A stretch of 64,000 nucleotides of DNA from Thermoanaerobaculia bacterium (GCA_035996815.1 DASYJF010000145.1:24345-88344), one strand, 5' to 3'; positions 2,676-63,701 are shown, counted from the first letter of the stretch. Notes: generated by a model not told the origin, from the sequence alone. Program-made: numbers and translations.

Positions 2676-2762
2676 CGCGACAGAGCTTTTCACGCGGAGA
2701 CGCGGGGGCGCGGAGAAACCCGAATCCTCCTCCGCGTCTCCGCGACTCCGCGTGAAAAACGT
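2676..2762. repeat. Dispersed ~87-bp palindromic element, copy A, at the convergent junction prfC / GT39-like gene
   Basis: Internal inverted repeat ttttcacgcggagacgcgg / ccgcgactccgcgtgaaaa. Near-identical copy at 9430-9518. Confidence 0.6.
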
Positions 2763-4345
2763 CACCTTCGAAGCAGCATCGCGTTGAATCGCTCGCCGCG
2801 CCAGATGTTCTCAACGTGGTACTGCGCGCGCAGCAGCGCACCAGCCCGAAGGTCGTAATCGATGCCGAAGCCGCGCGCGCCGTACTCGCGCAGATCGCGG
2901 CTGACCATCAACACGCGATCAGGAGGATGCATCGTCAGCTCGCGCACGATCGCATCCTCCGTTTGCGGCGCATCGACTTCCACCGGCGTAAACGTGTGAA
3001 AGGAAAGTGTGGTCGGCACGTTCGCCAGATAGTTGATGGTGATGCCTTCCGGGATCACCGCCAGCGTCCCGCCCTGCACCGCGCCGATGACGCTGTTCAG
3101 CGTTCGCGCCCGATCAGCGTTCCAATCGTAAAAGATTCCCCGCGGCGACACGATCGCGTACCGCTTCTCCGCGTAGCGTTCGTGCTGTTGCCAGAGATCG
3201 CCGCCGGCGTTCGCGACGAATGGCGCGAGCCACAGGATGGCCATCACGTTCCGCCGCGGCAGATAGCAGAACAACGTGTATGCGGCCAGTGCGATCGTCG
3301 GAACCGTGAGCACGAAGCCGTACCAGGACGGCGAAACGTTCAACGGAATCCGGAGCGTGCAGGCCACCGAAAAGGCCGCGAAAATCACCAGCGGGCTCTC
3401 GCGGTCGCGCACGAGCGCCCATCCGAGCGCGATCCATTGCAGCACCGCCCAGGCCCGGAAGAAGGAATGGTCAGCGATCAGAACGGCAACGATCACGATG
3501 GCAATCGCCGCTAGCCAATGCCGCCATCGCTGCAGAAACAGAATCGCCGCGATGCCGGCAATGCCGGCGGCGATCTGCAGCAGTTGACCGCGCCAATCGG
3601 CGAATCCTGAGACGACCTCGAAGAAGTGCTTCGCCCGAGCACCGTGCTGCCACGCCGCAAAGACGTTCTCGCTCCACCAGTGCGTGTCGCGAAAGTAAAA
3701 CGCGACCGCCGCGATTGTCGCGATCATCGCGACGCAGTACGCCGCCAGTTGTCGCCACGAAATCCGCCTCGCTATCGTCAGGATGATTACGATCAACAAC
3801 CCCGCGACCGCGTACTCAAGCTTGCACCACGACGCCACTACCAGCGCGCTGATCGCGATCGCGTGCCGCGCGTGTACGAACGCGGCGAGCGCGATGCACA
3901 ACAACGTCATCCCTATCGTCACGCCGTAGCTGTACGGGAAGATGAAATTCGCGCCCCACGTCGACGCGCCGCAGAAGCACGTCGCCGCGAATGTCAGCGT
4001 CGCCGCGAATGCCGGCAACGGACGCCGTAACGCAATCCACAGCGATGCAGCAATCGTCGCCGACTGCGCGATCCCGATCGCCACATACGCCGTCAGCGAG
4101 TGACCGATCGCGCCGGTGATGAGCGCCAGCAAATACGGCGCAAGCGGCGGATATTGATAGCGGATGTCGCGATACAACTTCGCGCCGCGCGCAATCTGCT
4201 CCGGGATGTACAGATCGCGCCCCGTATCGATGATCGGATCGAGCCAGCGAGCGTAGGACTGGATGAATGCGAGCGCGGCGACGACAACAACGATTCCGAT
4301 GAAGACGGGTGTCAGGTGTCGGCTGTCAGGTGTCGGAGACTCATC
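2762..4345 (-). CDS. Polytopic membrane protein, GT39/ArnT-like glycosyltransferase fold (start uncertain, probably GTG)
   Basis: More than 10 predicted TM helices followed by a soluble C-terminal domain. The N-terminal 297 codons of the track ORF 2762..5275 overlap the upstream gene and are R/G-rich, so they were trimmed. Confidence 0.45.
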   Translation of the reverse strand, partial: DESPTPDSRHLTPVFIGIVVVVAALAFIQSYARWLDPIIDTGRDLYIPEQIARGAKLYRDIRYQYPPLAPYLLALITGAIGHSLTAYVAIGIAQSATIAASLWIALRRPLPAFAATLTFAATCFCGASTWGANFIFPYSYGVTIGMTLLCIALAAFVHARHAIAISALVVASWCKLEYAVAGLLIVIILTIARRISWRQLAAYCVAMIATIAAVAFYFRDTHWWSENVFAAWQHGARAKHFFEVVSGFADWRGQLLQIAAGIAGIAAILFLQRWRHWLAAIAIVIVAVLIADHSFFRAWAVLQWIALGWALVRDRESPLVIFAAFSVACTLRIPLNVSPSWYGFVLTVPTIALAAYTLFCYLPRRNVMAILWLAPFVANAGGDLWQQHERYAEKRYAIVSPRGIFYDWNADRARTLNSVIGAVQGGTLAVIPEGITINYLANVPTTLSFHTFTPVEVDAPQTEDAIVRELTMHPPDRVLMVSRDLREYGARGFGIDYDLRAGALLRAQYHVENIWRGERFNAMLLRR

Positions 4346-4383
4346 TCCCACGCCCAACTCCCGACTCCCCACTCCCCCGAATC

Positions 4384-5582: not shown

Positions 5583-5665
5583 TCCTGGACTGATTTGCGG
5601 GGCCGCTTGCAACCAGGTTAAAAAAAGCTAAAGAGCCGGCAGTAGGCCGTTCGACTCCGACTGAA
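5583..5665 (+). ncRNA. Candidate SAM-II/SAH-class riboswitch aptamer in the metH leader
   Basis: Putative promoter TTGACA(5547)-17 nt-TACCCT(5571). Hairpin cctgg…ccagg whose loop contains GCTTGC, and a 3' tail AAAAAAGCTAAAGAGC able to pair with the loop (pseudoknot), as I remember the SAM-II architecture. metH is a classic SAM-II/SAH riboswitch target. Confidence 0.35.
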
Positions 5666-5699
5666 GCCCCGCAATTTCAAGCGGGGCTTTTTCTTTTCT
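5666..5699 (+). terminator. Intrinsic terminator/attenuator hairpin 11 nt before the metH start codon
   Basis: gccccgc-aatttcaa-gcggggc stem-loop followed by a tttttcttttct U-tract. Confidence 0.6.
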
Positions 5700-8700: not shown

Positions 8701-9430
8701 CGCGAATTCAGTCAGTGACGATATCGAGCTTTACTCCGACGAATCGCGCAGCAACGTCATCGCCCGCTTCCACACGCTGCGGCAACAGCAGGAAACGAAC
8801 ACCGGCCAGAACTTCGCCCTCTCCGATTTCATCGCACCGAAGGAGAGCGGCATCATCGACTACGTTGGCGGCTTCGCCGTCACCGCCGGCATTGGAGTCG
8901 GCGACGTCGTCGCTCGATTCGAAAAAGATCACGACGACTACAACGCCATCATGACCAAAGCGCTCGCCGATCGTTTGGCCGAGGGGTTGACAGAGCTGCT
9001 GCACAAAGAGACGCGCGCCGGGTGGTACGCGCCGGATGAAAACCTGTCGAGCGACGAACTGATCGCCGAAAAGTATCGAGGCATCCGTCCCGCGCCCGGA
9101 TATCCCGCCTCGCCCGACCACACCGAAAAAGCCACACTCTTCTCACTCCTCGGCGCCGAGCGCGCCGGAATCGAACTGACCGAAAACTTCGCCATGATGC
9201 CCGCCGCTTCCGTCAGCGGCCTGTACTTCGCGCATCCGCAATCGAAATACTTCGCCGTCGGCAAAATCGGACGCGACCAGGTCGCGGATTACCACGTCCG
9301 CAAAGACATGCCGCTGCCAGCGATCGAACGCTGGCTCGCGCCGGCCCTGGCGTACGAGCCGGAGCAAGCCCCGGATCCAACTGTCTGCTCCTGCGGCGCT
9401 ACGCATGGTGCTGTCGCGGCAAAGAGCTAA
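5711..9430 (+). CDS. metH: Cobalamin-dependent methionine synthase
   Basis: 1239 aa. Hcy-binding [11 protein letters not shown], pterin-binding, B12-binding ([11 protein letters not shown]) and AdoMet-activation domains are all recognisable. Confidence 0.95.
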
Positions 9431-9518
9431 AAGCTTTTCACGCGGAGTCGCGGGGTCGCGGAGAAAAGCTCTCAACCTCCGCGTCTCCGCGTCTCCGCGC
9501 GAAAAGGTTCTCTGTCGC
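9430..9518. repeat. Dispersed ~87-bp palindromic element, copy B, at the convergent junction metH / TPR gene
   Basis: agcttttcacgcggagtcgcggggtcgcggagaaa…cctccgcgtctccgcgtctccgcgcgaaaagg. About 85% identical to copy A and ends with the inverted form of copy A's start. Confidence 0.6.
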
Positions 9519-9525
9519 TTGAACG

Positions 9526-12378
9526 CTACGGAGGTCCGAAGAGATCTTCTGGAATCTCAACGCGCGGCAGTTCAACCGATACCCGCAGCGGCAACGCGAT
9601 CGGCGGGTCGAGTTTCAAGCCAAGTGCGGAGGCGGGCAGCGTCTGAATTTCGCGCTTCGCGGCGATGCGCGGTTCGTTGATGCGCACGACGCCGCTGAAC
9701 TGCAGCGGCGCGAGCGCTGGGCGCGGGAGCGCGCGCAACACGTCGTCGAGCGCGGCGCGGTCGGCGGCGGGCATCGGCGCGAATGCGATGACTGGCAGCG
9801 GCTGCGGTGCGGTGGTGTGGATGACGCGCAGATCGCGTGCGTGCTCGGCGAGAAGCGGATTCGATTCGGAAACGAGCGCGGCGTCGGTGCGGCCGTACAG
9901 CGCGTTGGCGGCGGCGGTGACGTCGTCGGCAACGCGCGTGGTCACGTTGACGCCGTCATCGCCCAGGGCTTCCGAGCCGCTGATCGTCTTGCCGCGAAGA
10001 TCGGCGAGCGACTTCGCAGTGCTGCGAATCGGCACGATTACCTTGCACACGTACGTCGTATGTCCTTCGCGGCTGAATGCAAAGCGCGGCGCGAAATCGT
10101 GGGTGATGAATTCAGGGTTGGCGATGATCACGCCGATGCGATCGTGGTTCGCGGCGATGAACGCTCGCGCGTCGTCCGCGCGGCGAAAGAGTTCCGTCTT
10201 CAGCGGCAGTGACGACGCGCCGGCAAGACTCGCGACGATCGCCGTCGCAGCCTCGGCCAACTTCTTCTCCGTTTCCGCAGGCGTGTCGGGCAGGAAAACG
10301 ACGACGGTGTGACGCGGCGTAGGTGATGTTGGCTCCTCGGCGATTTCGTTCGCCGGTTGCGCGGCTTCGAGATTCTTTTTCGCGGCTGACTCGATCGCCG
10401 CCGGCAAATCGCCCGCGATGGAGCGGGAAAGCGACTCGCGCCCGTCGCTGCCCGTGATGAGATCAGCAGTCCCGCGGATGAAGAGCGCGACCGATTGTCT
10501 TCGTTCGTCCAGCGATGCCGCACGTTCCGCGAGCACGCGTGCACGGCGCGCAGCAGTTTCGTCCTGATGTTTCGCGGCCCGATCGAGTTCGTCCGCGGCT
10601 TGCGCGATCAGCGCGGCCGCCAGCGACTTCTTCGCGTGGCCGCAGACATCGGCTTCCGATCCAAGCGTCAGCTCGAGCACTGAACCTGCTCGGCGGCCCC
10701 ACGTGTCAGGGCATCGCATTGCATCGAGCAAGGACGCCGCATCGTCATATCTCCGTTCAGCAATCGCCACCTCGGCCGCCGCAAGTGACACTTCGCTCCA
10801 ATCGGCGAACGCTTTGTGGGCAGCGGCCAGGTGCGGCTTGGCGTCCGCCAACATTCCGAGTTGCCAGAAGAGAATCCCCGCATCGCCGCGCGCGATCGGC
10901 GAGGCACTCTGCGCGAGCGACTTCGCCGCAACATCGCGTTTGCCGTCGAGCGCGTCGAACACCGCTGTGACCTCGGGTGTCGTGATGTGCAACGCGCGCA
11001 GATTCGCGACCGTCGGATTCTGGCGCAGATTCACGACGCCGATTTCGGCGCGTAACGCCGGACGATCGGGCAGCGCTTCGAGCGCGGCACGTTCCGCGGC
11101 GAGTTCGCCTGCATCGCGCGCGACGAGCGCCCGCTCGAGCATCACGATGTTGTTTTGCAGTGCGCGTTGCAGCAGCGACTTTGCATCGTCCAGGCGTTGC
11201 TCGTGCCGCGCGATGCGTCCGAGGAGCAGCAGCGACTCGGCGTCGTTCGCATCAAGTTTCAAAACGTTTTCTAGCGACGCGCGTGCACCGGCGCGATCGC
11301 CGCGAATCAGTTGCGCGCGGCCGAGCATCTTCAGCGCGATGCGTTTCGAATCGGCGTCGAAGTGCGGCATGCCGTCGCGCAGCAGCTTGATCGCGTCGTC
11401 GTACTTTGCGGACTTGAACGCGATCGTGCCGAGGTGGAGATACGCAAGCGGCAGCGACTCGTCGCCGGCCAGCGCCTTGCGGTACTCCAACTGCGCGCGG
11501 TCGGTCTTGCCGGTCGTGAAAAAGAGAAAGCCGAGGTTGTAGTGAGCGGTGGTGCTGTCGTCGATGCTGGCCGCCTTCTGATACGCATCGATCGCTTCGG
11601 ACCACTTCTGCTGTTTCAGATAGATCGCGCCGAGGTTCGCATAGGCGCGGGCGTTGACGACTTCGACCGGTTGATGCGTCGTGAATGCCTGATCGATCGG
11701 CGCGAGAGCCATGCGATACGCGTCGAGCGCCGCGTCGTAGCGGCCGGCGTCGAAGAGCACCGCGCCGAGGTTGAAATAGGCGCGCAGAAACGTGTGATCG
11801 AGATCGGCCGCTTTGCGATACGCGGCGATCGCGTCATCCTTGCGGCCGAGCGCCACGAGCGTGTTGCCGAGGGTGAATTGGTACTTCGCATCGTCGGGCG
11901 CGAGTTGCGTGGCCTGTGTGATCGCGGCCATCGCGTCGTCGTTGCGATTGAGCGAACGAAGGATCGTCGCGCGCAGCGAGTAGAGCGCGGCATCGCGCGG
12001 CGTTTTCGCGATCGCCGCGTCGACGTATTTCAGCGCGTCGGCCGATTTCCCCAGTTGCTGCGCGGCCGCGGCGGCGTTGGAGAGCAGCGTCCGATCCGCG
12101 GGCGCTGCAGCGGTACCGCGCACGAAGGTGTCGTATGCCTCGGACACTTTCCCCTGCTTGAAGTAAAGCGCGCCGAGGTCCACGTACGCGGATGCGAGCG
12201 ACGGCGCGACTTCGATTACGCGGCGGTACTTCGCGACCGCATCGTCGATCCGATTCGCTTCGCGTGCGCGCTCGGCGTCTTCCATGAGACTGCGCGCGAC
12301 CTCGGGGATGTCCTCCTGAGCGCGCGCAACCGGCGCGACGATCGTCAGCGCGATCACTGCGGCAAGGACGAAGCGCAT
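9526..12378 (-). CDS. Secreted multi-TPR protein with a C-terminal periplasmic-binding-protein-like domain
   Basis: Signal peptide [21 protein letters not shown]. At least 10 TPR units (AYxNLGxxYxxxGxxxEAxxxYxKA). C-terminal ~300 aa resembles PhnD/SBP-type domains. Start trimmed to avoid overlap with purQ. Confidence 0.55.
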
Positions 12379-13179: not shown

Positions 13180-14543
13180 ATGGTCTTCAGGTCCAAAACG
13201 GATAGCGGCGAGATCAAGAAGCCGCAGCAGCAGAACTCGCGGGTTCCGCTGGTGATCACGATCGTGGCGCTGGCCGTGGTGGGGAGCGCCTACTACGTTT
13301 ATTACCGCCAGCACGCGGAGTACTACACCGGCCGGAATCTGCGCCTTCTCTCCATGCTCAGGTCGAAGGACGCGTGACGATGTTCTCGTCAGCCTGAAAG
13401 CTCAATCCGTTGGCGCGGGCACCTCCGGCAAGAAAATCGACGACATCTTCTCCACGCCGGGATTGAAGTTCGGACAATGTTCCGAAGAACTCCCGGCCGA
13501 GCTGCCGAAGCCGGGCCGCATCCAGATGCGGCGCGATGCCGTAGAAAGCGCGCGCGGTTGGAAAATGCGGCTGCGGGCGTATCTCGATCAACAGACGACA
13601 TGCGCGTCCGTCACGATCGACGATGTCGCTCGTCCGATCTTTACGCGCGACCTCGGCGCCGCCTTCGACGTGCTTCTCATAGCCAGGGAGGACGGCACCG
13701 TTCTGTACAGCATCCGTCCTCCTCCTGCGTCATCGACACTTCTCGGCAATCAAGATGAATGGATCGTGAAGCGGAAGAGCTCCCGCCCGTCGCGCCGATC
13801 AAATCAGCGGCGTCAATGACGGCCACGCTTCCGACCGCAGCGCCAGCCACAGATACTTCATCCGCGGACAAGAAATCCGCGAGCGACTCCTCAAGCAAAT
13901 CGGCCGTGATGACGGAACGCGACAACGGACCGCCGGTGCTGATCACCAATCTGAAGGCGCTGCAGAAACGAAAGGCCGGCTGGTTCTCGGGCTACGAGCC
14001 GGTCACTCCGGCATCGCTGACGATGGCCACCAGCGACATTACCGTGTCGCTCGGCGGCAGCGACTACGGGCTGTTTACGCAGCCCTACACCTACTCGCGA
14101 TTGCCGGCCAGCGTCCACGCCAGGAAGAGCAACGAGTGGGCGTCTGCGGATTGGTATCGGCATCGCGCTTTCGCTACGACGTCTTCGCCGTTTCGACGTC
14201 AATCGTCCTGATCGCAATCGCCATCGGCCTGCTGGCGCTTTGCTGCTGGCCGTATCTTCGGATCGCGCTCATTCATCCGAGTCAGCCTCTGGCAATCACC
14301 GACGTCGTACTTATCATCTTCTGCACCATCGTCGGCTCGGTCGTGATCACGCTGGCGCTGCTCGACGCGTTCGCCTACCGCGGCATCACGCAAACCGCTG
14401 ACGAACAACTGCAGAAGTTCGGCGACGCGGTGAACCGCGACTTCGCCCGCGACGTCAGCCGCGCCATGGAGACGTCCTCGCGGCAGCTCAACCAGAGGCC
14501 GGCGAAGTACGCCACGGCGCTGACCACAGGACTACGATCCTGA
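13180..14543 (+). pseudogene. Probable degraded sensor gene (TM – Cache-like periplasmic domain – TM – HAMP-like), broken into four frames and lacking an output domain
   Basis: Consecutive plus-strand ORFs in frames 1/2/1/3 (13180-13377, ~13376-13819, 13759-14211, 14136-14543). Together they read TM helix, …LLIAREDGTVLYS… and …ITVSLGGSDYGLFTQPY… (Cache-like), TM helix, HAMP-like segment, then stop. No kinase or MCP domain follows. Confidence 0.35.
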
Positions 14544-14616
14544 TGAAACTGGTCGGAGCATTCGCCGAAAAGCGCAGCGACGTGAACGCGTAGGGACGCG
14601 AAGGTGGGATCCGCCT

Positions 14617-14634
14617 GGCTCCGGCAGTAAGACG
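14617..14634. repeat. Distal att-like direct repeat of the tRNA-Asn 3' end (17/18 identical)
   Basis: Direct sequence comparison with 16583-16600. Confidence 0.65.
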
Positions 14635-14688
14635 AAGGACCCCTCACTTTGGTCACGCAACCCCGCGCGAGCAAAGAATGCCAAAAGA

Positions 14689-14925
14689 ATGGCAAAACAA
14701 CCGTATACTTCGACGACCATGGCGCGGCAGCCGAACCAGTTACCAACGGCGACCCTGACGGTGTCCACGACGCCGCAAGTGCTGCTGGAACTCGAACGCT
14801 TGGTTTCGACCGGCCATTTCGGAAAAAATACGGCGGATGCGGCCGAGAGAATCATCTCGACGTACTTGCATTCAGCGTTCGGAAGCGAAACTGCCAGCCC
14901 GAGAAACGCGACAAGCAACCGATAG
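14689..14925 (+). CDS. Small ribbon-helix-helix (CopG/Arc-like) putative regulator
   Basis: …TATLTVSTTPQVLLELERLVSTGHFGKNTADAAERIISTYL… fits the RHH beta-strand + two-helix pattern. Stop lies 17 nt before the next gene. Confidence 0.4.
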   Translation: MAKQPYTSTTMARQPNQLPTATLTVSTTPQVLLELERLVSTGHFGKNTADAAERIISTYLHSAFGSETASPRNATSNR

Positions 14926-14941
14926 GGGGTCCGGCACAGCG

Positions 14942-15691
14942 ATGCCCATCGACGATAAACGGTTATTGAAAAACGCTCCAATCGTCGAAGCGCTCATCGA
15001 TATTCGGGTAACGCCGGCGGACAGTTTCACTCAGACCCACCTGGAAGCTGTGAAGAGTCAGCTCGGCAAATTTTTTTCGTCCGTGGACGAACAAAAACAG
15101 GGTGAGCTGTTTTTTCAGATCGTCGAGGGCCGCGTCGCGGAGCCTCCGACGGTCGCCGACCGCGGCGTGACCGGTCTGCTGTTTCGGGCCACCGACCGTG
15201 AGGAGGCAGTGCAGGTTCAGGAAGGGGGCTTCGTATTCAGCAAACTCAGGCCTTACTCGAGCTGGGAAGACGTCTCCACTTCGGCTCGTCGGTACTGGGA
15301 GATTTACTCGTCTGCCATCCCGCTTAGGCAAGTGAATCGATTAGCAGTGCGATACATCAACCATTTTGTCGTACCGCGGCACAAGCAGATATCGGATTAC
15401 TTGGCGGCGCCGCCGGCCGTTCCGGAGGGCATCGAACCAGCGTCGCTGATGAACTCCCTATCGCGGTTGTTGCTTATTGGACCTGGAAATCTAGAAGCGA
15501 GACTTCAGCTGGCGTGTGACACAGCAGACTTCGGATCCAACGTGTTAATGGATATCGACTGCTTTCGCGCGGTGCAATTTGAGCCGTCCGCCGATACGTT
15601 CTGGCCGTCTCTGCAGGAACTTCGCGAGATGAAAAATCGTATCTTTTTCGGAAGCATCACCCGTTTTGCAGAAGAGGAGTTCAACAAATGA
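14942..15691 (+). CDS. TIGR04255-family-like hypothetical protein
   Basis: N-terminus …KNAPIVEALIDIRV… matches the conserved N-terminal signature I associate with TIGR04255. No catalytic motif identified. Start trimmed to MPIDDKRL. Confidence 0.5.
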   Translation: MPIDDKRLLKNAPIVEALIDIRVTPADSFTQTHLEAVKSQLGKFFSSVDEQKQGELFFQIVEGRVAEPPTVADRGVTGLLFRATDREEAVQVQEGGFVFSKLRPYSSWEDVSTSARRYWEIYSSAIPLRQVNRLAVRYINHFVVPRHKQISDYLAAPPAVPEGIEPASLMNSLSRLLLIGPGNLEARLQLACDTADFGSNVLMDIDCFRAVQFEPSADTFWPSLQELREMKNRIFFGSITRFAEEEFNK

Positions 15692-16188
15692 CTGCCGACA
15701 CCCCGTGGATCAATGTTGACCTGTTTGCCGGCGACTCGAGTACCGCGGTGGGAGTCGAGGCTCGATGCTTCGCGACCACAGAGCGCGAGATCATTTCGGA
15801 GTGGCTCGCGGCACCAATCACGGGCGCTCCCTTGCGCGACGGCCTTCGAGCGATCATGGAAGCGGCAAGTGAAACGCAGAGGACGAATTGGGACGGCAAC
15901 GGAGCGGCGCCTTTTAAACAGCGGGCATTACTCAACGCGGTACGGTTGCTGAAGCGACTTCCGGTAACCATGCCAGTCGATGATGTCTATGTTGATGCTG
16001 ATGGAGCCGTACTGCTTGAGTGGCAGACTTCGACCAAACGTTCCTTTACCGTAGCCGTCAACGAACATGGCGAACTGCACTTCGCCGGTGTGTTCGGGCT
16101 GAGCCGCCTTCGAGGCCGCGATATTTTTGTCGGCGACCGCGTACCTGAAAGCATCCGTCTTGGCATCCGCCGGGTGTTCGACGCGTGA
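15688..16188 (+). CDS. Hypothetical protein (166 aa), translationally coupled (ATGA overlap)
   Basis: ORF with a 4-nt overlap to the upstream gene. No recognisable motif. Confidence 0.5.
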   Translation: MTADTPWINVDLFAGDSSTAVGVEARCFATTEREIISEWLAAPITGAPLRDGLRAIMEAASETQRTNWDGNGAAPFKQRALLNAVRLLKRLPVTMPVDDVYVDADGAVLLEWQTSTKRSFTVAVNEHGELHFAGVFGLSRLRGRDIFVGDRVPESIRLGIRRVFDA

Positions 16189-16565
16189 CGATGTTTTCTG
16201 TCGTCGCCGCAGAATCTGCTGTTGCTCGGTTTCTCTTCAGCGGCCATCTGAAAGGAAGCCGCGTTCGCCCCAACGCTTTCATCCCGCCGGAACACGACCT
16301 TCGGCTGTCGGTGTGTGTTACGGACGACCTCACGACCCAGGACATTCACGCATGGGGCAAGCTGTACGCGTCGTCCCCTGATCGCGAAGCCAAAGGATTC
16401 GCGCTTCTTCACGTCTTTGATTTTCACGCGGAGGACCTCTCGGTCGAGCGCGACGACGACCCGCCGCGTCACGCAGAAGTCGCTGGTTGGCCCGCCGACA
16501 AAGAAGCTCGCCTCGATGTCGCGAAGCAACTCGTGCGTGCGATTGCGGAGATTCAGTTAGGTTGA
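16185..16565 (+). CDS. Hypothetical protein (126 aa), translationally coupled (GTGA overlap)
   Basis: 4-nt overlap with the upstream gene. Ends 18 nt from the tRNA 3' end. No recognisable motif. Confidence 0.45.
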   Translation: MTMFSVVAAESAVARFLFSGHLKGSRVRPNAFIPPEHDLRLSVCVTDDLTTQDIHAWGKLYASSPDREAKGFALLHVFDFHAEDLSVERDDDPPRHAEVAGWPADKEARLDVAKQLVRAIAEIQLG

Positions 16566-16582
16566 TTCGGCGCTTGGCGCCT

Positions 16583-16658
16583 TGGCTCCGGCAGTAGGAC
16601 TCGAACCTACGACCCACGGATTAACAGTCCGTTGCTCTACCAACTGAGCTATGCCGGA
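16583..16658 (-). tRNA. tRNA-Asn (anticodon GTT)
   Basis: Reverse complement gives TCCGGCATAGCTCAGTTGGTAGAGCAACGGACTGTTAATCCGTGGGTCGTAGGTTCGAGTCCTACTGCCGGAGCCA. The cloverleaf folds, the anticodon loop is CTGTTAA, and CCA is encoded. Confidence 0.9.
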
Positions 16659-16709: not shown

Positions 16710-17171
16710 TCAACGTGGGGGCAAACCGAGGGGGGTGGCAGTGTATTTCGCGAGGGCGGAGGTCAGGCGCGGGAGCAAATCGGCGAGTTCGGAGTACTCG
16801 ATCAGGTCGATTTCGCGGTCGCCGGCGACCATGGCCGTGCAGCGCGATGTGTGCGCCGGCCGGTAGAGGCAGATGACCGGGATTCCGTAGCGGTAGCGGG
16901 CGGTGGCGATCTCGTATCCGACTCCCGTCGACGGCATCGACGCTTCGGCCACGAGCACGTCGGCGGCGGCGATCCAGGCGAGGTCGCGGTCGAAGATCGG
17001 GCAGGAGTCGAGCGCCTCGCCGGATGCGGTCACATGTTCCGCGGCTACTGCGCCGGCGAGCACGTGATGGCCTGCGGCTTCGAGTGCCGCGATGATCTCG
17101 CGATACAGCGCGACGTCGCCGCGGCCTCCGCTGATTGCGCCGGCGAAGTAGATCGTTCTTTTGACTTTCAT
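16710..17171 (-). CDS. 2'-deoxynucleoside 5'-phosphate N-hydrolase (DNPH1/Rcl-like; nucleoside 2-deoxyribosyltransferase superfamily)
   Basis: TIYFAGAISGGRGD…LYREIIAAL…DRDLAWIAAADVLVAEASMPSTGVGYEIATA…ICLYRP closely parallels the DNPH1 sequence as I recall it. Confidence 0.65.
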   Translation of the reverse strand: MKVKRTIYFAGAISGGRGDVALYREIIAALEAAGHHVLAGAVAAEHVTASGEALDSCPIFDRDLAWIAAADVLVAEASMPSTGVGYEIATARYRYGIPVICLYRPAHTSRCTAMVAGDREIDLIEYSELADLLPRLTSALAKYTATPLGLPPR

Positions 17172-17254
17172 CCTGCGTGAGCGCAGCGAGCGTCAGGATC
17201 TCCAGTTGGCGCGGTTCCACCGGAGATCCTGACGATCGCTGCGCTCACGCAGGA
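17170..17254. promoter_or_regulatory. 34-bp-arm near-perfect inverted repeat (1 mismatch, 17-nt spacer) over the start of the DNPH1-like gene and the rng leader
   Basis: atcctgcgtgagcgcagcgagcgtcaggatctcc … ggagatcctgacgatcgctgcgctcacgcaggat. Confidence 0.7.
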
Positions 17255-17270
17255 TAGAGTAGAAAAAACC

Positions 17271-18773: not shown

Positions 18774-18857
18774 GGGAATGGGGGGTCGGGCGTCGGGGGT
18801 CGTAGAACCACACTTCCCCTCGGCACGCCCCGTGCAGTTTGACCGTGCCGAGCTGTC

Positions 18858-24872: not shown

Positions 24873-25979
24873 TCACGGCTTTTCGATTGCCGCCGTAACT
24901 CTCCCGTTTTCAATCAGTAAGCGCCGGTGCGGCCCAGTCTCCAGCGTTCGCAGGAAACGCTCCTTTGCAGACGTCGCAAAAACCTGCGTTTGAGCCGGGA
25001 GTTTGACGAGCAGTTGCTCGAGGATTTCAAGATCGAGCTCGGCGTCGATGTCGTCCAGTAAAAAGAGCGCCGTCTCATCGAAACGACGCCGGAAAAGGGC
25101 CAGTTTCGCGAACTTCAAAAAGAGCACGACCATCTTCTGCTCGCCGCCGGAAAGCACCTCGGCGGCCGGCCGGCCATCGATAGAAAACGCGAGGACGTCG
25201 CGCTGCGGCCCGACCAGCGACATGCGCGCGCGCAACTCGTCGCGCCGAATGCGCGGCAGATCGTCGACGGCGTTCGGCTTGTAGTCGATCGCCAGATTTC
25301 GAATGTGATACCGATGCTCCGCGACGATTTGCGCGAACGCACCGCTCAGCGCCTCGGCATACGACGCCCGCCCGCGCTGTAGCGGCGCGGCGGCGTTCGA
25401 GAGCTCCTCATCCCAGGCATTGAGCGACGACGTGCTCCCGCTGGCCAGCAACGCGTTGCGTTGGCGCAATGCGCGGCCGTAGCGGCTGACCGCTTCGAGG
25501 TAACTCGGATCGACGCTGGCGATGCCGCGGTCGAGAAAGCGCCGCCGTTCTTCCGGCGCGCCGCGCAGGATGTCAAGCCGCGCTGACGAGTACGCGAAGA
25601 CGCTCATCGCATTCACATACGCCGGCAGCGTCACGCGCTCGCCGTTGATCAGCAGCGCGCGGCGCCGCGTCTCGCCTGTCTCCAGGCCGACGGAGAGCGT
25701 CTTGTCGACGCCGAATCGGTGCAGCACGCCAGTGACGAACACGCTCGGCGATCCGAACTGGAACACGCTGCCGATGCGCGCGGTGCGAAACGATTTCGTC
25801 GTAGCCAGAAAGTAGATCGCTTCGAGCAGGTTCGTCTTTCCCTGCCCGTTCCGACCGACCACGATGTTGACCTGATCGTGAAAGGCCACCTCTTCCGCGC
25901 CGAGGTTGCGGAAGGACTGAGTTGTGAGGTTACGGAGAATCAAATGGGATCCTGAAGAGGCTGCGAAGAAACGCTGCAA
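24873..25979 (-). CDS. recF: DNA replication and repair protein RecF (true start probably ~30 nt inside the ORF)
   Basis: Walker A GRNGQGKTNLLEAIYF, signature LSGGEQK, Walker B LLLDD. Confidence 0.85.
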   Translation of the reverse strand: MQRFFAASSGSHLILRNLTTQSFRNLGAEEVAFHDQVNIVVGRNGQGKTNLLEAIYFLATTKSFRTARIGSVFQFGSPSVFVTGVLHRFGVDKTLSVGLETGETRRRALLINGERVTLPAYVNAMSVFAYSSARLDILRGAPEERRRFLDRGIASVDPSYLEAVSRYGRALRQRNALLASGSTSSLNAWDEELSNAAAPLQRGRASYAEALSGAFAQIVAEHRYHIRNLAIDYKPNAVDDLPRIRRDELRARMSLVGPQRDVLAFSIDGRPAAEVLSGGEQKMVVLFLKFAKLALFRRRFDETALFLLDDIDAELDLEILEQLLVKLPAQTQVFATSAKERFLRTLETGPHRRLLIENGRVTAAIEKP

Positions 25980-25994
25980 CTCGCCGCGCGGGCG

Positions 25995-26204
25995 CGCGCG
26001 AAGGCGCGCTTCACAAGCCTAGCCCCGCGCTTGGCGCGGGGAAAACGAACGTGGCCGAATTGCGTGGCCGCGGAGTCGGCCACCACGAAGTGCTCGCGTA
26101 GCGTGACGCTTTGTAGCGGGCCGCCTCCGCGGCCGCACATTGTTGGCACTCCCATACCCCGCGCTGAGCGCGGGGCTAAGATTGTCGAGCGCGCCTTCGC
26201 GCGC
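25995..26204. repeat. ~210-bp structured element: two ~47-bp inverted arms (each containing GC hairpins) around a 115-bp core, filling the dnaN–recF spacer
   Basis: 25995-26041 is approximately the reverse complement of 26157-26204. Each arm carries its own hairpin, ccccgcgc-ttgg-cgcgggg and ccccgcgc-tgag-cgcgggg. Confidence 0.55.
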
Positions 26205-26250
26205 TGGTGCACGCTGAGGCGTAGATTTTCCCGCAACCTCTGACGCCGGC

Positions 26251-29130: not shown

Positions 29131-29172
29131 CCGACCCCCGACCCCCGACCCCCGACCCCCGACCCCCGACCC
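29131..29172. repeat. Hexanucleotide microsatellite (CCGACC)x6 plus one imperfect unit, upstream of dnaA; G-rich on the opposite strand (GGGGGTC)n
   Basis: Read directly. Flanked by the inverted pair gtaggagtggggagtgg (29047-63) / ccactccccactccctac (29198-215). Confidence 0.85.
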
Positions 29173-29326
29173 CCGAGGCCCCGATCTCCCACTCCCCACT
29201 CCCTACACCCCACTCCCCGGAATAGCCCGCTATGACCAATGGTTCCGCCCCGTCGCTGGCTGGTTTGACGACCTTCCGACCCGCCGCTATACTCCCCGCC
29301 TTCTTTTTCAGAAGCTTAAGGAAATC

Positions 29327-35912: not shown

Positions 35913-36058
35913 CTTTGGAGTGCGGTGGCGATCGAGCCACCGCTTTGGGAGGGCGGTGGAACTGTGACAACTCGCAGTGTGTGATGCTTGCTCGATCGTC
36001 GCGATGGTTACCGTCATCCTCCCTCCCAAAGCGGTGGCTCGATCGCCACACTCCAAAG
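35913..36058. repeat. ~145-bp palindromic element (41-bp arms, ~64-bp spacer) in the mnmG–rsmG spacer
   Basis: ctttggagtgcggtggcgatcgagccaccgctttgggaggg … ccctcccaaagcggtggctcgatcgccacactccaaag. Each arm also contains the self-complementary gtggcgatcgagccac. Confidence 0.6.
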
Positions 36059-38760: not shown

Positions 38761-38799
38761 CGCTGCGGTGCGAGCATCGACTGCAGCAATATGACAAAC

Positions 38800-38967
38800 G
38801 ATTGCAGAGCTGCGATCGGTGATTACGGAGCTGCGATCGGCGATTACAGAGTTTCGATCGACGATTACAGAGTTGCGATCAACGATTACAGAGCTGTGAT
38901 CGATGATTACAGCGATGTCCAGATTTGTCGCAGAGCTGTAATGGCTGATTACAGCTACGTCTGGATG
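38800..38967. repeat. 21-bp-period tandem array A (5 good + 3 degenerate units; consensus gattacagagctgcgatcggc)
   Basis: Read directly. The array is contiguous with no unique spacers, so it is not a CRISPR. Confidence 0.8.
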
Positions 38968-55682: not shown

Positions 55683-56060
55683 ATTCAAAACACAATCTCC
55701 TTGAATCGCAGACAAATCCTCTGATTCAGTCGACAGACTCTCTGGGTCGTTAGACAGACTTTTTGGATCGTTAGACACAGTTTTTGGACCGCGAGACATA
55801 CTTTCTGGGTCGTTAGACACACTTTTTGGATAGCGAGACCCACTCTCTGGATAGCGAGACAGACTCTTTGGGTCGCTAGACAGATTGATTCGATCGGATG
55901 ACCCACTTCATGGGTCGACTGACATACTTTTGGATCGCTAACCAAACTTCCTGGGTCAGCAGACAGGCTCTTTGGGTCAATCGGCAATACGCTTGGGCCG
56001 CTCAACTCGTGGTTTGGTTCGGTAGATCAACCGTTTGATCGGTAGGCGTGCAGGATCGGC
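55683..56060. repeat. 21-bp-period degenerate tandem array B (~17 units; consensus tggatcgttagacagactttt), lower GC than its surroundings
   Basis: Read directly. The units are contiguous and degenerate, with no spacers. Confidence 0.75.
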
Positions 56061-57077: not shown

Positions 57078-58367
57078 GTGAAACTGTTTCGCGGCCGGAT
57101 TTTTTCGCCGATTGCTGATCCCTTCACCGTCGATCCGGCGAAGTCGTATGTCTACTACGACGACGGCTTTCTGGCAGTCGACGGCGATCGGATCACCGGC
57201 GTCGGTGCATGGCGCGACGTTCCGCGGCAGAGCTCGACGCTGACGCAACTCGGACGCGATGTCCTCATCACGCCGGGATTTGTCGACACGCACCTTCACG
57301 CGCCGCAGCTCGAGATGATCGGATCGTACGGCGGCGACCTGCTCGAGTGGCTTAACCGCTACACGTTTCCGACCGAGGCCAAGTTCAGCGATCCGAAGCA
57401 TGCGGAGATGGTGGCGCGTATCTTTTTCGAGGAGCTGCTGCGCAACGGGACGTTGTGCGCGCTGATCTTTTCCACGATTCACGAACGCGCCACGGAGATT
57501 TTTTTCGAGGAAGCGGAGCGGCGCGGATTCCGGGCAATCATCGGCAAGACGATGATGGATCGCAATGCGCCGCCCTCGTTGCTGGAAACGCCGAAGCAGT
57601 CGTACGACGAGAGCCGCGCGCTACTTCAGAAATGGCACAAGCGTGGACTGCTGCGTTACGCGATCACGCCGCGCTTCGCGCCGACGTCGACGCCGGAGTT
57701 GCTCGAAGCGGCGGGACAACTCAAGCGCGAGTTCCCGGATGCGTACGTTCACTCGCACATCTCCGAGAATCGCAACGAGGTGCAGTGGGTTCACGACCTC
57801 TTCCCCGAGGCCGAGTACGCGGATGTGTACGATCGGTATGGCCTGCTCGACGAGCGCAGCGTCCTCGCGCACGGCGTCCACCTGACGGAAGAAGAGCTGG
57901 AACTACTCGCGCATCGCGGCACGCGCATCGCGCACTGCCCGAATTCAAACCTCTTCCTCGGCAGCGGCCTTTTCCGCCTTCACCACACGCTCGAAGCCGG
58001 CGTCGTCGTCGGCCTCGGCACGGACATTGGCGCAGGCACGACGCCGTCGATGTTCACGACGATGTCGGACGCGTACAAAGTCCAGCAGGTACAAGGCGTG
58101 TCGCTGACTCCGTTTCACCTCTGGTACCTGGCCTCGCTCGGCGGGGCGCGCGCGTTGTCGCTGGATGCCGAGTCCGGCAGTCTGGAGCCTGGCAAGTCGG
58201 CCGACTTTCTCCAGCTCGATCTGAAGTCGACACCGCTCGTTGCCTTGCGAAGCGAACGCGCATCCTCGGTCGAAGATCTCCTCGCCGGACTGATCTTCAC
58301 CGCCGACGATCGCGTCGTCCGCGAGTGCTGGATCGCCGGGCAAGTGGTCGCGACGCGGAGCCCGTGA
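57078..58367 (+). CDS. guaD: Guanine deaminase
   Basis: Amidohydrolase HxH (FVDTHLHAPQ), HSHISEN, HCPNSN, GLGTDIGAG. Confidence 0.8.
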   Translation: MKLFRGRIFSPIADPFTVDPAKSYVYYDDGFLAVDGDRITGVGAWRDVPRQSSTLTQLGRDVLITPGFVDTHLHAPQLEMIGSYGGDLLEWLNRYTFPTEAKFSDPKHAEMVARIFFEELLRNGTLCALIFSTIHERATEIFFEEAERRGFRAIIGKTMMDRNAPPSLLETPKQSYDESRALLQKWHKRGLLRYAITPRFAPTSTPELLEAAGQLKREFPDAYVHSHISENRNEVQWVHDLFPEAEYADVYDRYGLLDERSVLAHGVHLTEEELELLAHRGTRIAHCPNSNLFLGSGLFRLHHTLEAGVVVGLGTDIGAGTTPSMFTTMSDAYKVQQVQGVSLTPFHLWYLASLGGARALSLDAESGSLEPGKSADFLQLDLKSTPLVALRSERASSVEDLLAGLIFTADDRVVRECWIAGQVVATRSP

Positions 58368-58455
58368 GTGGATTAGTGGATTCGTCGATTAGTAGATTAG
58401 GACGCTGCTTGGGGATCTCCGCTCTAATCGACTAATCCACCAATCGACTAATCAC
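58368..58455. terminator. Long imperfect palindrome built from GATTAG/CTAATC units (32-bp arms, 23-nt spacer) right after guaD
   Basis: gtggattagtggattcgtcgattagtagattag … ctaatcgactaatccaccaatcgactaatcac. Confidence 0.5.
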
Positions 58456-58501: not shown

Positions 58502-59794
58502 ATGAACAAGTTACGAGCGATCTTCGCGTTCGCGGCGCTGTCGGCTGTCGCCGCTTTCGGACAGGATCGTACTGTCTGGCGGACGAGTGGCGATGTGCAG
58601 GAAGGCGGCCGAGGCACGATCGTCGGCACGGTTGCGGACACGCAGAACGGGCGCGCCCGGATGGTCGTGACGCCGGACAGTGCGCTGAGCGATCAGATTA
58701 CCGTCGATACCGATTCGGTCTCGACCCAGTACAACGGCTTCGGCGGGACGATCAACGGCGCGCCGGAGATCTTCGTCGGCGCGACCGGCTTCAACGAAGT
58801 GCGCACCGGCGACCGCGTCGAAGTCCGCGGCGTCGCCATCGGCGGCGGCATCATCCGCGCCGAACGCGTCACGCTCCTCGGCCGCGCCGTCGCGGCGCCG
58901 CAGACAGGGATCGGACAGACGCGCACGCCGACCTCGATCTCGACTCCGACCGCGTCGGGCACGACGCCGAGCACCGCGCCGGACCGCATCGGCCGCGTCG
59001 AAGGTGTTCTGCAGCAAATCAACCCTGAGGAAGGGCGGCTGGTCGTCGTCACCGATCGCCGTGAAGTGCTGACTGTCCGCACGCCGCAGGGAACGCCGGT
59101 CCGCTATCACGGCGATACGTACCGCATTTCGAATCTCGAAGTCGGCGACCGCATTCGCATCGAACCGGAAGGCGGCGCGGCGGTGACCGGAAATGAAATC
59201 CGGGCGCGGTCGATCGAAGTGACGCAGAGCTCCCAGGAAACGAACGGCACCTCGGCATCGCGCGGCGTCGGTGCGCTGACGGGACGCGTGACGCGCGTCG
59301 ATCGGACGAACAATGCGATCCAGCTCGACACCGGGCGCGGCACGATCGCGGTCGATCTTCGAAGCGCCGCCGATCCAAGCGGACGTCCAGTCCGTGGCCG
59401 CGATGTTCAGGCCGGTGATCAGGTCGAGCTGAGCGGGTCGTACAGCGGCGCGACGTTTGTGGCCACGACCATTCGCTTTACGGATGACAGCGGAACGACG
59501 ATCGAACAAGGACCCGCGACCGCGGTGCCCGACAACATCCCCGCCGACCTCGGAGTGGTGACGCTCTACGGGACCGTGGCGCAGACGCTCGGCGACAGTC
59601 CGCAACTCGTGCTGCGAGACACGCAGAACAACAATAGGACGGTGCGCGTCTACGCACTCGACGACCTGCTGGTACGCACGAAAGGCGGGACTTACACGAC
59701 CGCCGATAAGTTGAAGGCGAGCGATTCGGTGGTGATCAAGGCCTACCGCGACATGGATGGGAACTACATCGCGCAGACGATCAGGATTCGGTGA
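58502..59794 (+). CDS. Secreted protein with repeated beta-rich modules (DUF5666-like)
   Basis: Signal peptide. Recurring …GDRVEVRGV…/…GDRIRIEPEGG…/…GDQVELSGS… modules. Confidence 0.45.
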   Translation: MNKLRAIFAFAALSAVAAFGQDRTVWRTSGDVQEGGRGTIVGTVADTQNGRARMVVTPDSALSDQITVDTDSVSTQYNGFGGTINGAPEIFVGATGFNEVRTGDRVEVRGVAIGGGIIRAERVTLLGRAVAAPQTGIGQTRTPTSISTPTASGTTPSTAPDRIGRVEGVLQQINPEEGRLVVVTDRREVLTVRTPQGTPVRYHGDTYRISNLEVGDRIRIEPEGGAAVTGNEIRARSIEVTQSSQETNGTSASRGVGALTGRVTRVDRTNNAIQLDTGRGTIAVDLRSAADPSGRPVRGRDVQAGDQVELSGSYSGATFVATTIRFTDDSGTTIEQGPATAVPDNIPADLGVVTLYGTVAQTLGDSPQLVLRDTQNNNRTVRVYALDDLLVRTKGGTYTTADKLKASDSVVIKAYRDMDGNYIAQTIRIR

Positions 59795-63200: not shown

Positions 63201-63701
63201 GCAAACGAGCAGCAGGATGATGCCGGTAACGATGCCGATCCATGCGCGTACTGTTGGACTGAGCCAGTGTTGATCAAGCGAGTAGCTGAGGAGAAAAAGC
63301 ATTGCCAGAACCAGCGCGATGCCGGCGATCCAGGAGAAAAGCTTGACGCCGATCAGTGACTCCCAATCGAACGGTTTGCGGAGTGTTGGGCGTGGGGGGT
63401 GGGGCGTGGGAGGCGGCGGCTCGGGAATCGGTTCCGCTTCGAACGCGGTGATTGGTTCGGGCTGTGGAGCAATGATCGGCTCAGGTTCCGGCGGGGGCGT
63501 GACGATGAACGGCGCCGCCATCGGTTCCGGCCGTGGTTCGACCGGAGGCGCCGCGGGTTCCTTGATGGAAGCCCGATCCAACCGGCGTCGCACCTCGGCA
63601 AGCTCCGCGAGTGCTTTGCTCGCACGGCTCGACGCCTGAATCGCCACGGCGAACGCGATCACCGCGAAGATCGCGACCAGAGCAATCACACAGCCTTGCA
63701 T
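60219..63701 (-). CDS. Large polytopic membrane protein (DUF2339-like) with a Pro/Glu-rich N-terminal linker
   Basis: 1160 aa, more than 25 TM helices. The N-terminal PEPEP/PPPTP low-complexity region lies after one TM helix. Confidence 0.55.
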   Translation of the reverse strand: MQGCVIALVAIFAVIAFAVAIQASSRASKALAELAEVRRRLDRASIKEPAAPPVEPRPEPMAAPFIVTPPPEPEPIIAPQPEPITAFEAEPIPEPPPPTPHPPRPTLRKPFDWESLIGVKLFSWIAGIALVLAMLFLLSYSLDQHWLSPTVRAWIGIVTGIILLLVCELRVARDYAFTANAMDGAGIAILYATLFAMHALWHLLPASAVFVLMLIVTAIAVLLSIRRDSVFIALLGLVGGFATPALLSTGENKPVALFSYLLLLNVGVLFVAIQRRWPLLTALSVVFTVIYEWSWISKYFTAAQLPLAVSIFVLLAAAAAASLWMRRRADEAQRRFDFAAISSAGLPLLFAIYVAAVSSYGVQYNILFTFLLFITTGLSVIAIFRGPIWLHLLGGATIALVLVVWRVTSYTPAAWPAVLAWIAAFVVIQLALSHFTSIPKTIVAPAFLLLFPALAMLPIPASAPMLLFGTLFVLVAIIAAYAIGHSAGAGYAIAAFLAIVAEGVWSADNVKPATLTTALLIYAAFALLFLAVPIIARRLGRDIVSQRTMMALVLGSVGVLFFLTIGDTAPHALWILAIVLAIINIGAIAQSKPRQRAILAASAIVLSWIVITVWCSTALNLASLVSALIVIGGFALLAVGGGVFIARGEDGDTSTTYLGLIGHLFLFAIAIQPHLAFPPWPLFAVMFVLDIAIGIAAMYLRRATLMTAALAASQLVLMAWAADAKAMPWPVTAFVATIAVCAIALLWFRIDRRFNVAAFVALGLGDIVLIIAGGVASTPIFGSLLAAHLIVGIAMLAVAWIMELHDLAILAVALLALGTALSRTHTPAQQLIFAAAVYAIFVAYPLLLGTRAKRFIQPYLAAVLAAVPFFVFARRAIEDAGYGYAIGLLPVFQAALMLLLVWRLLRIEPASERFLSRLALTAAAALAFITIAIPLQLEKQWITIGWALEGAALVWLYRRIPHRGLLAWSGALLAAAFVRLSVNPAVLSYHPASHHAIVNWYLYTYLVSVAAFFVAAWLLPEKDAAEFNVARPGANAGGAILLFLLVNIEIADFYSAGPTLTFNFLSSSLAQDLTYTIGWALFAVAMLVTGLVLHSRASRVAAIFLLLVTVLKCFLHDLARLGGLYRVASLLGLTISLLLVGVLLQKFVIRKAATHAAEPS

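Follow-up and report, generated by a model that had tools for sequence, protein, structure and literature searches.

The question raised by the window, that is, by the whole 64,000-nucleotide stretch of DNA that was analysed, is what the two long palindromes are that fill the convergent gene junctions behind prfC and metH, an earlier note having taken them for bidirectional terminators that might also belong to a repeat family. The reading which we favour, and to which we would assign a probability of roughly 0.6, is that these hairpins are ORF-less derivatives, MITE-like or rRNA-intervening-sequence (IVS)-like in nature, of cassettes in which the same arms bracket a gene of the GxxExxY family. 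The repeat-family reading proved to be much broader than the earlier note had guessed, and the link to GxxExxY is the part worth following.

Architecture of the window palindromes

Two palindromes were found where the earlier note had placed intervals of about 87 bp, with cores at 2687-2758 and 9435-9505. Copy 1 is a 72-bp palindrome on the plus strand (2687..2758) and is composed of foot, units, loop, units and foot. Its forward arm (2687-2715, plus strand) starts with the left foot TTTTCA (2687-2692), followed by the units CGCGGAG (2693-2699), CGCGGGG (2701-2707) and CGCGGAG (2709-2715), which are separated by the single bases a and g; a loop of 14 nt, AAACCCGAATCCTC (2716-2729), leads to the reverse arm (2730-2758), in which three CTCCGCG units with the spacers t and a (2730-2752) precede the right foot TGAAAA (2753-2758). 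Copy 2, a 71-bp palindrome (9435..9505, plus strand), has the same layout, with a forward arm of TTTTCA, CGCGGAG, CGCGGGG and CGCGGAG and a t in both spacers (9435-9463), a 13-nt loop, AAAAGCTCTCAAC (9464-9476), and a reverse arm of three CTCCGCG units and the right foot CGAAAA (9477-9505). Each arm is made up of a TTTTCA foot and three head-to-tail octamers, the octamer being CGCGGAG with one spacer base N, and the period of eight was also picked up by Tandem Repeats Finder.

Arm complementarity amounts to 90% in copy 1 and to 90-93% when arms of different copies are compared; in both copies the arms form a 29-bp stem with one to three mismatches, the CGCGGGG in the second unit of the left arm giving rise to a G.T mismatch. 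The long GC-rich hairpins described in the earlier note were confirmed by folding, as the RNA of either strand is predicted to form a hairpin of -52.9 to -63.3 kcal/mol (z -5.6 to -8.0), a stability that was matched by none of 200 shuffled sequences; the motif itself was never found in shuffled sequences. Outside the core of copy 1 the flank GCGACAGAGC (2677..2686, plus strand) is part of a weaker outward extension of the palindrome and is found again, as its reverse complement, on the right side of copy 2, where the flank GGTTCTCTGTCGC (9506..9518, plus strand) pairs with AGAG upstream of that copy and matches the family-wide right extension GTGAAA-ccGTTCTCt.

The two copies had been described as sharing about 85% identity and as being inverted forms of each other, and both statements hold in part. 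The identity applies to the 72-nt cores in the same orientation (84%, or 62 of 74 columns, as compared to 78% when inverted), but not to the full intervals originally noted, over which it amounts to 69% in the same orientation and 75% in the inverted one. Inversion applies to the outer flank GCGACAGAG, which precedes copy 1 and, as its reverse complement, follows copy 2, but not to the core asymmetries typical of the family (CGCGGGG in left-arm unit 2 and GAGAAA(A) opening the loop), which are on the plus strand in both copies. The call of an inverted form was probably made because the GCGACAGAG flank is situated on opposite sides of the two copies; in a near-perfect palindrome, orientation is hard to define.

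No third copy of the element was found in the 64-kb window, and the window plus 9 kb holds two. An isolated exact 13-mer, TTTTCACGCGGAG, representing the foot and one unit, does lie in an ORFan frame at a distance of 150 nt from a tRNA gene, as the earlier note had it for a gene of an islet, albeit on the plus strand at 16421..16433 rather than at 16419-16431. A second unit and a partner arm were looked for at this position and neither was present. As the exact match occurred in 0 of 100 shuffles it is not a chance expectation, and it may be a relic of the element. The region that contains it (13400-16600) encodes ORFs without a Pfam match, has a G+C content of 0.56-0.60 as compared to 0.62-0.67 nearby, and ends beside the tRNA gene (16586-16658, minus strand), which suggests that it may be an integrated islet.

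The window harbours other repeats as well. A second gene-less hairpin with octamer arms, built from another unit, is present at 58367-58453 (four copies of AGTGGATT, a loop and four inverted TAATCCAC-like copies) between the co-directional ORFs 57078-58367 and 58502-59794, and its predicted folding energy is -40 to -42 kcal/mol (z -3.0 and -5.4). A different long palindrome at 17170-17255 (ATCCTGCGTGAGCGCAGCGAGCGTCAGGATCTCC...) has arms of 37 nt, 95% complementary, separated by a loop of 12 nt, and two further inverted repeats occur at 35925-36049 and 25968-26230, one having 32-nt arms that are 97% complementary and 61 nt apart, the other 74-nt arms that are 76% complementary and 115 nt apart. 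Intergenic tandem heptamer arrays at 4306-4377, 18781-18802, 29131-29218 and 63388-63410, with the units GGTGTCA, CCCACTC (at 4347 and again at 29188), CCGACCC (6.6 copies), GGGGGTC and GGGCGTG and with one G-rich strand, resemble the STRR or quadruplex-type repeats of cyanobacteria and Xanthomonas. Tandem Repeats Finder also reported 21-nt repeats at 38778-38924 and 55711-56003 (5.5 and 7.3 copies) which, if coding, would specify 7-residue protein repeats.

The arm family and the GxxExxY cassettes

Loci were collected with an arm pattern of 20 fixed bases, CGCGGAGNCGCGGNGNCGCGGAG, to which the prefix TTTTCR was added for metagenome contigs. Matches were present in at least 119 genome contigs, at least 120 viral contigs and at least 120 metagenome contigs, with multiple copies on single large contigs (at least three on one of 4.08 Mb), and the element therefore belongs to a dispersed repeat family, as the earlier note had supposed, rather than to a local duplication. 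Hosts among the matches listed include Bryobacterales, Terriglobia, Pyrinomonadaceae, Vicinamibacterales and Thermoanaerobaculia, as well as many Sphingomonadales, Parvibaculum, Planctomycetota, Verrucomicrobiota, Gemmatimonadota, Chloroflexi and cyanobacteria. Outside the search pattern, 62-69% of arms had TTCA at positions -4 to -1, and purines made up almost all spacers. The sister units CGCAGAG, CGCGAAG, CACGAAG and CACAGAG were encountered in the same loci, the arms of one pair usually consisting of the same variant. The spacing between forward and reverse arm was mostly below 150 nt (range 6 to about 250 nt), with 14 nt being the commonest value in the metagenome set, and arm pairs more than 300 nt apart were rare. 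Spacer bases were Watson-Crick paired in only about 50% of hairpins and covariation was weak, so that constraint looks unit-by-unit rather than helix-wide. A set of 58 short hairpins exhibited the same quirks as the window copies, namely the TTTTCA foot, CGCGGGG only in left-arm unit 2 and GAGAAAA in the 5' part of the loop, and since these quirks are non-structural their common occurrence points to common descent and not to convergence.

At the Rfam gathering score the window yielded only a tRNA and nothing for the element, which at E<=10 obtained generic long-hairpin matches of 10.9-25 bits against thresholds of 42-124. A blastn search of the element against plasmids returned just three weak matches, probably owing to the low-complexity filter, and nothing relevant was found in the literature for the arm sequence or for the tail peptide described below. 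At four loci (L093, L259, L332 and L351) one long stop-free frame spans the whole hairpin, and some copies may lie in-frame inside genes.

For some unpaired arms a small ORF was seen to start about 10 nt further on. When the ORFs next to arms were clustered all against all, the recurrent neighbours were phage or GTA-like structural gene clusters, which reflect the make-up of the viral collection, and GxxExxY, the sole small family recurring across phyla. All GxxExxY genes in the arm-selected loci (six of six) were bracketed by arms and all belonged to one family, TIGR04256 'GxxExxY protein' / PF13366 PDDEXK_3, which is PD-(D/E)XK-like. The cassette consists of a forward arm of TTCA and three CGCGGAG+R octamers, about 10 nt, a gene of about 125 amino acids, and a reverse arm of three Y+CTCCGCG octamers and TGAA; the two metagenome cassettes L375 and L384 have this same arm-gene-arm layout. 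The forward arm stops shortly before the start codon, so that its GGAG is located at the position of a ribosome-binding site. The reverse arm is located at the 3' end of the ORF and encodes the C-terminal tail of the protein, PSASPRLRVN being the in-frame translation of CCCTCCGCGTCTCCGCGCCTCCGCGTGAAC; such tails were found by a loose pattern in 111 of the best 120 homologues of one cassette protein, and in about 117 by eye. Reading frames that end in ...SASPRLRVN, or that consist of FTRRRGDAE-like strings, are accordingly to be regarded as read-through of repeat arms.

The link extends to plasmids, among which tblastn identified eight records with GxxExxY, and all four matches of at least 38% identity had tandem C-R-C-R-R-A-G octamer arrays that lay at the gene or next to it. 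In Sphingomonas parapaucimobilis the gene is positioned between fabD and fabG with arms on both sides and TTCAC/GTGAA feet; Bacteroides finegoldii has CACAGAG, CGCAGAG and CACGGAG units on both sides with the same feet; Bernardetia has CACAGAG arms on both sides without a clear foot; and in Gemmatirosa a CGCAGAG-type hairpin closely follows the gene, which has no more than a partial unit on its upstream side. Of the four plasmid genes that are more distant (30-36% identity), the one in Treponema is accompanied by one inverted unit and those in Fusobacteria, Prevotella and Persicobacter by flanking direct repeats. Named homologues that are 72-81% identical come from Gemmatimonadales, Ignavibacteria and Hydrogenedentota, a distribution which fits horizontal transfer, and multiple horizontal transfers have been noted for the GxxExxY family (PMC3424549).

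The family is very large, with at least 7,980 GxxExxY/PDDEXK_3 homologues at E<=1e-10, and its association with the arms appears to be undescribed in the searchable literature. A structure model reached a pLDDT of just 65 and the fold search was uninformative, so that the putative nuclease activity rests only on the Pfam assignment. Several of the proteins (P0126, P0131, P0141 and others, from JGI) carry the label 'iron complex transport system substrate-binding protein', which is contradicted by a domain content of PF13366 only and looks like a propagated mis-annotation.

The 64-kb window itself encodes neither a GxxExxY protein nor a four-helix-bundle protein, and the connection between its hairpins and the cassettes runs through related loci. 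Of these, L033, likewise from Thermoanaerobaculia, reads TTCA-CGCGGAG-A-CGCGGGG-A-CGCGGAG-AAAAGCG-ATG and then, as far as the contig extends, encodes a GxxExxY N-terminus; its left half agrees with that of the window hairpins and of the 58 short hairpins related to them, the CGCGGGG unit and the AAAAGC that opens the loop being among the shared features. At L092 only some 15 C-terminal codons and the reverse arm are left, and L248, L360 and L358 have degenerate arms; these four loci represent decay intermediates.

In the mechanism that we propose, the arm-bracketed GxxExxY cassette would be the full-length form, and the window copies would be forms from which the gene has gone and in which the arms are joined by a short loop. 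By analogy with ORF-carrying 23S rRNA intervening sequences, the cassettes would be selfish units that move horizontally, the GxxExxY protein would act on the arms, and the hairpins would have arisen by loss of the ORF with subsequent spread or persistence as MITE/REP-like DNA, being either copied as miniatures or left behind as scars. The rarity of arm pairs more than 300 nt apart implies that ORF-bearing forms are a small minority, and hairpins far outnumber cassettes, which is a caveat to this scheme. The derivation may run in either direction, from cassette to hairpin or by insertion of a gene into a hairpin, neither of which is proven, and the hairpins may just as well be remnants of cassettes that decayed in place, formed without transposition.

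This last possibility has a stricter form, according to which every hairpin is the scar of an ORF deleted between its arms and the gene-less form never moved itself. Long inverted repeats around 400 nt are known to be deletion-prone, and such deletion would agree with the decay intermediates L092, L248 and L360 and with the lack of a target-site duplication. It would not readily explain why loop length is tightly clustered around a mode of 14 nt, nor why loops from many loci and genomes are alike (GAGAAAA..C, with a similar 3' end), as copying of one gene-less ancestor accounts for alike loops more easily than do many independent deletions; the numerical excess of hairpins over cassettes also argues against it. 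We regard the stricter form as unlikely.

Returning to the derivation from GxxExxY cassettes, it can be extended, tentatively and with somewhat less than even odds, to the proposal that GxxExxY and its arms constitute an unrecognised class of small selfish elements distributed over many bacterial phyla, in which the protein would recognise or cut its own arms, the hairpins of the window, the Geobacter sites discussed below and probably some heptamer or octamer arrays would be non-autonomous offspring, and the ORF-bearing rRNA IVS would be a sister case.

Gene junctions and competing readings

Copy 1 starts 11 nt past the stop codon of prfC (2673-2675) and ends 3 nt short of the stop codon (2762-2764) of a convergent gene of 531 amino acids, while copy 2 starts 4 nt past the stop codon of metH (9428-9430) and ends 20 nt short of the stop codon (9526-9528) of a convergent TPR gene. 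The label 'GT39-like' that the 531-aa gene had been given could not be confirmed, as no Pfam family matches this gene. Judging by PrfC homologues, of which the named ones are about 80% identical, the organism belongs near Thermoanaerobaculia (Acidobacteriota).

The orthologous prfC junction was compared in the relatives L362/L363, L364 and L365. The element is absent from L364 (PrfC 93% identical) and from L365 (91%), in which the convergent genes overlap by 15 and 12 nt, respectively; in the window these gene ends do not overlap, and the C-termini that they encode are the same. In L362/L363 (95%) the prfC junction is occupied by an unrelated palindrome, CCTGGGA.CGCGGGCGTCCCGCCCGC..., which is also found at the metH junction of L364. 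Members of this other palindromic family (CCTGGGA.CGCGGGCGTCCCGCCCGC ... inverted) are situated at L362 11626-11705 and L364 18745-18825, at the junctions that hold the CGCGGAG element in the window, and in L362 the end of the convergent gene extends into the palindrome. L365 has a sister hairpin of CGCGAAG units at another convergent junction. Comparison of the prfC and metH junctions among these relatives indicates a fast turnover of intergenic palindromes in the lineage, and the element appears, from the same alignments, to have been gained recently at the prfC junction. A defined insertion junction was not found: at prfC a putative 12-mer target duplication is only 8-9/12 similar and too weak to call, and no direct repeat is present outside the feet in either window copy or in the 58-member alignment.

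Since both copies fill convergent junctions, 3-20 nt from four stop codons, and are very stable on both strands, it may seem natural to regard them as bidirectional intrinsic terminators that were selected at convergent gene ends, and in agreement with this, the 13 class 2 site pairs of Geobacter metallireducens listed in the available text of PMC2700814 include 10 between co-directional genes and three between convergent genes (3'/3') but none between divergent genes (5'/5'). The earlier note's proposal of bidirectional terminators is nevertheless not supported in its canonical sense. On both strands a T run lies 5' of the stem and an A-rich flank 3' of it (GTGAAAAAC, GCGAAAAGG), leaving no 3' T/U tract on either strand. 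A consensus terminator scan of the window reported neither element, although it did report 5663-5690, upstream of metH, where a 10-bp G+C-rich stem is followed by TTTTTCTTTT, a textbook arrangement which indicates that the genome does have classical sites of hairpin and T-tract. The relatives with 91-93% identical PrfC do without a hairpin, their gene ends overlapping, and the same arms bracket a gene elsewhere.

Both window copies lie downstream of genes, but the settings of other family members may argue against terminator function as well. By crude ORF calls, they occur between co-directional, convergent and apparently divergent genes and in both orientations, and also inside operons and directly upstream of start codons and of -10-like TACAAT boxes. 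The orientation of the element relative to flanking genes (++/--) came to 16/16, 4/9 and 11/20 under three home-made ORF-calling schemes, which tells us that all contexts occur and nothing beyond that. In related loci from soil bacteria (L277, L312, L322 and L333) the hairpin gives way on its right side immediately to a TACAAT box, and an ATG follows after another 7-10 nt, which suggests promoters of leaderless genes abutting the element. We consider the terminator reading improbable, and such hairpins should not be labelled terminators in annotation. In mRNAs of prfC and metH, and of the genes convergent with them, the stem of 29 bp would instead represent a 3' stem-loop or an RNase III substrate; by stopping 3' exonucleases, or by being cleaved by RNase III, it could shape the mRNA 3' ends.

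A further reading, to which we attach a similarly low likelihood, is that the arms are binding sites for a host nucleoid protein or global regulator of the IHF/HU type and that the palindrome is incidental. Sites in G. metallireducens that are paired on opposite strands at variable distance were catalogued by Aklujkar et al. 2009 (PMC2700814) in classes which, in the available text, include 4x GTTGCTYN, 3x TCTCCGTS (21 pairs) and 5x MTYCTGA, with IS110-family elements adjoining class 1 sites, and regulator binding of this kind was the authors' guess, including for the paired 3x TCTCCGTS sites. The spacers, which are purine or pyrimidine according to arm and only about 50% Watson-Crick paired, are in keeping with a constraint that acts unit-wise, and composite arms are not always nested (at L042 the order is A B C ... 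B' C' A'). No binding protein is known, however, and the variants CGCGGAG, CGCGAAG, CGCAGAG and CACAGAG coexist, with both arms of a pair usually being of the same variant; moreover, gain and loss between close relatives is unlike a conserved regulon, and a host factor would not predict linkage to one small gene family. Finally, the idea that the two copies are due to chance or to local duplication and have no wider family, which could appeal to the presence of only two copies in the 64-kb window, is refuted by the arm-motif scans and the 58-hairpin alignment, given hundreds of related copies elsewhere, no motif match in shuffles and the CGCGAAG-type sister hairpin in the 91% relative.

Comparison with known repeat systems

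The RAYT-mobilised REP/REPIN elements are likewise short, extragenic, multi-copy palindromes of lineage-specific presence that fold into stable hairpins, often follow stop codons and lack a target-site duplication. They differ in having a GTAG or CGTC tag, and in the present family the arm is a tandem repeat and not itself a palindrome; no unpaired GTAG/CGTC tag was found in family elements, in which the feet TTTTCA and TGAAAA pair with each other. An association with RAYT/Y1 transposases was rejected, as phmmer searches with IS200 TnpA and RayT over 2.8 Mb of arm-containing loci returned two weak matches, neither of them bracketed by arms, and none within the window; at L321 a RAYT-like ORF is located about 100 nt from a GTAG-tagged REP instead.

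MITEs offer another parallel in that they measure 70-300 bp, outnumber their full-length form and have terminal inverted repeats in common with a longer gene-carrying element, as is the case here with the arms that bracket GxxExxY. The partner gene in this instance is PF13366 PDDEXK_3 / TIGR04256 and not a known transposase, and no target-site duplication accompanies the window copies or the 58 aligned members. Integron attC sites differ: the core sites RYYYAAC ... GTTRRRY are absent, the ends being TTCAC...GTGAA, and the ORF lies between two arms instead of preceding them. Short tandem heptamers (STRR, TAACTGA of Beggiatoaceae and GGGNATC; PMC4679880, PMC4692102) are also intergenic 7-8-mers spread over distant phyla, but are mostly direct arrays with a 7-nt unit and no paired inverted arm, and no gene linkage has been reported for them. 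In the cyanobacterial loci L020, L074 and L087 CGCGGAG arrays stand beside heptamer arrays.

The class 2 sites of Geobacter come close to the window arms in design, both consisting of three tandem octamers paired on opposite strands at variable spacing. The window arms read 3x (T/A)CTCCGCG, and TCTCCGCG differs from TCTCCGTS at position 7 (C as compared to T), and also at position 8 when S is C. The Geobacter sites, too, lie between co-directional or convergent genes, with several sister classes of 7-8-mers per genome, but the available text of PMC2700814 reads them as IHF/HU-type sites and reports no link to a gene family. A later explanation of these paired sites was not found in the literature, and paired tandem 7-8-mer repeats have been noted for years in Geobacter, cyanobacteria, Beggiatoaceae and Xanthomonas without being explained. 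For these repeats and for the very large GxxExxY/PDDEXK_3 family alike, the fixed link to arms provides a testable hypothesis, that is, that the GxxExxY protein acts on the arms and that the hairpins are its gene-less derivatives.

The closest described design is the IVS of the Coxiella 23S rRNA, which has been called selfish and in which a small ORF is bordered by inverted repeats forming a 28-bp stem with one mismatch that is cut by RNase III (PMC4990558). The rRNA IVS of Coxiella and Leptospira (PMC4990558) combine terminal inverted repeats, a stem of 28-29 bp with a single mismatch and a small ORF, are described as selfish and horizontally acquired, and also exist in ORF-less forms; correspondingly, a long stem of about 28 bp surrounds a short loop in the window copies and an ORF in the cassettes. 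The differences are that the window elements are located between protein genes and not in rRNA, that the cassette ORF specifies a GxxExxY (PD-(D/E)XK-like) protein rather than a four-helix-bundle protein, and that the arms are tandem 8-mers, unlike those of IVS. At L345 (5560-6400) an ORF for a four-helix-bundle protein resembling that of 23S rRNA IVS is placed between inverted tandem octamers, of the AGCTCTTA type upstream and the TAAGAGCT type downstream, so that the tandem-octamer cassette design of GxxExxY recurs there with another gene and another unit. The link between arms and gene also bears on where rRNA intervening sequences come from.
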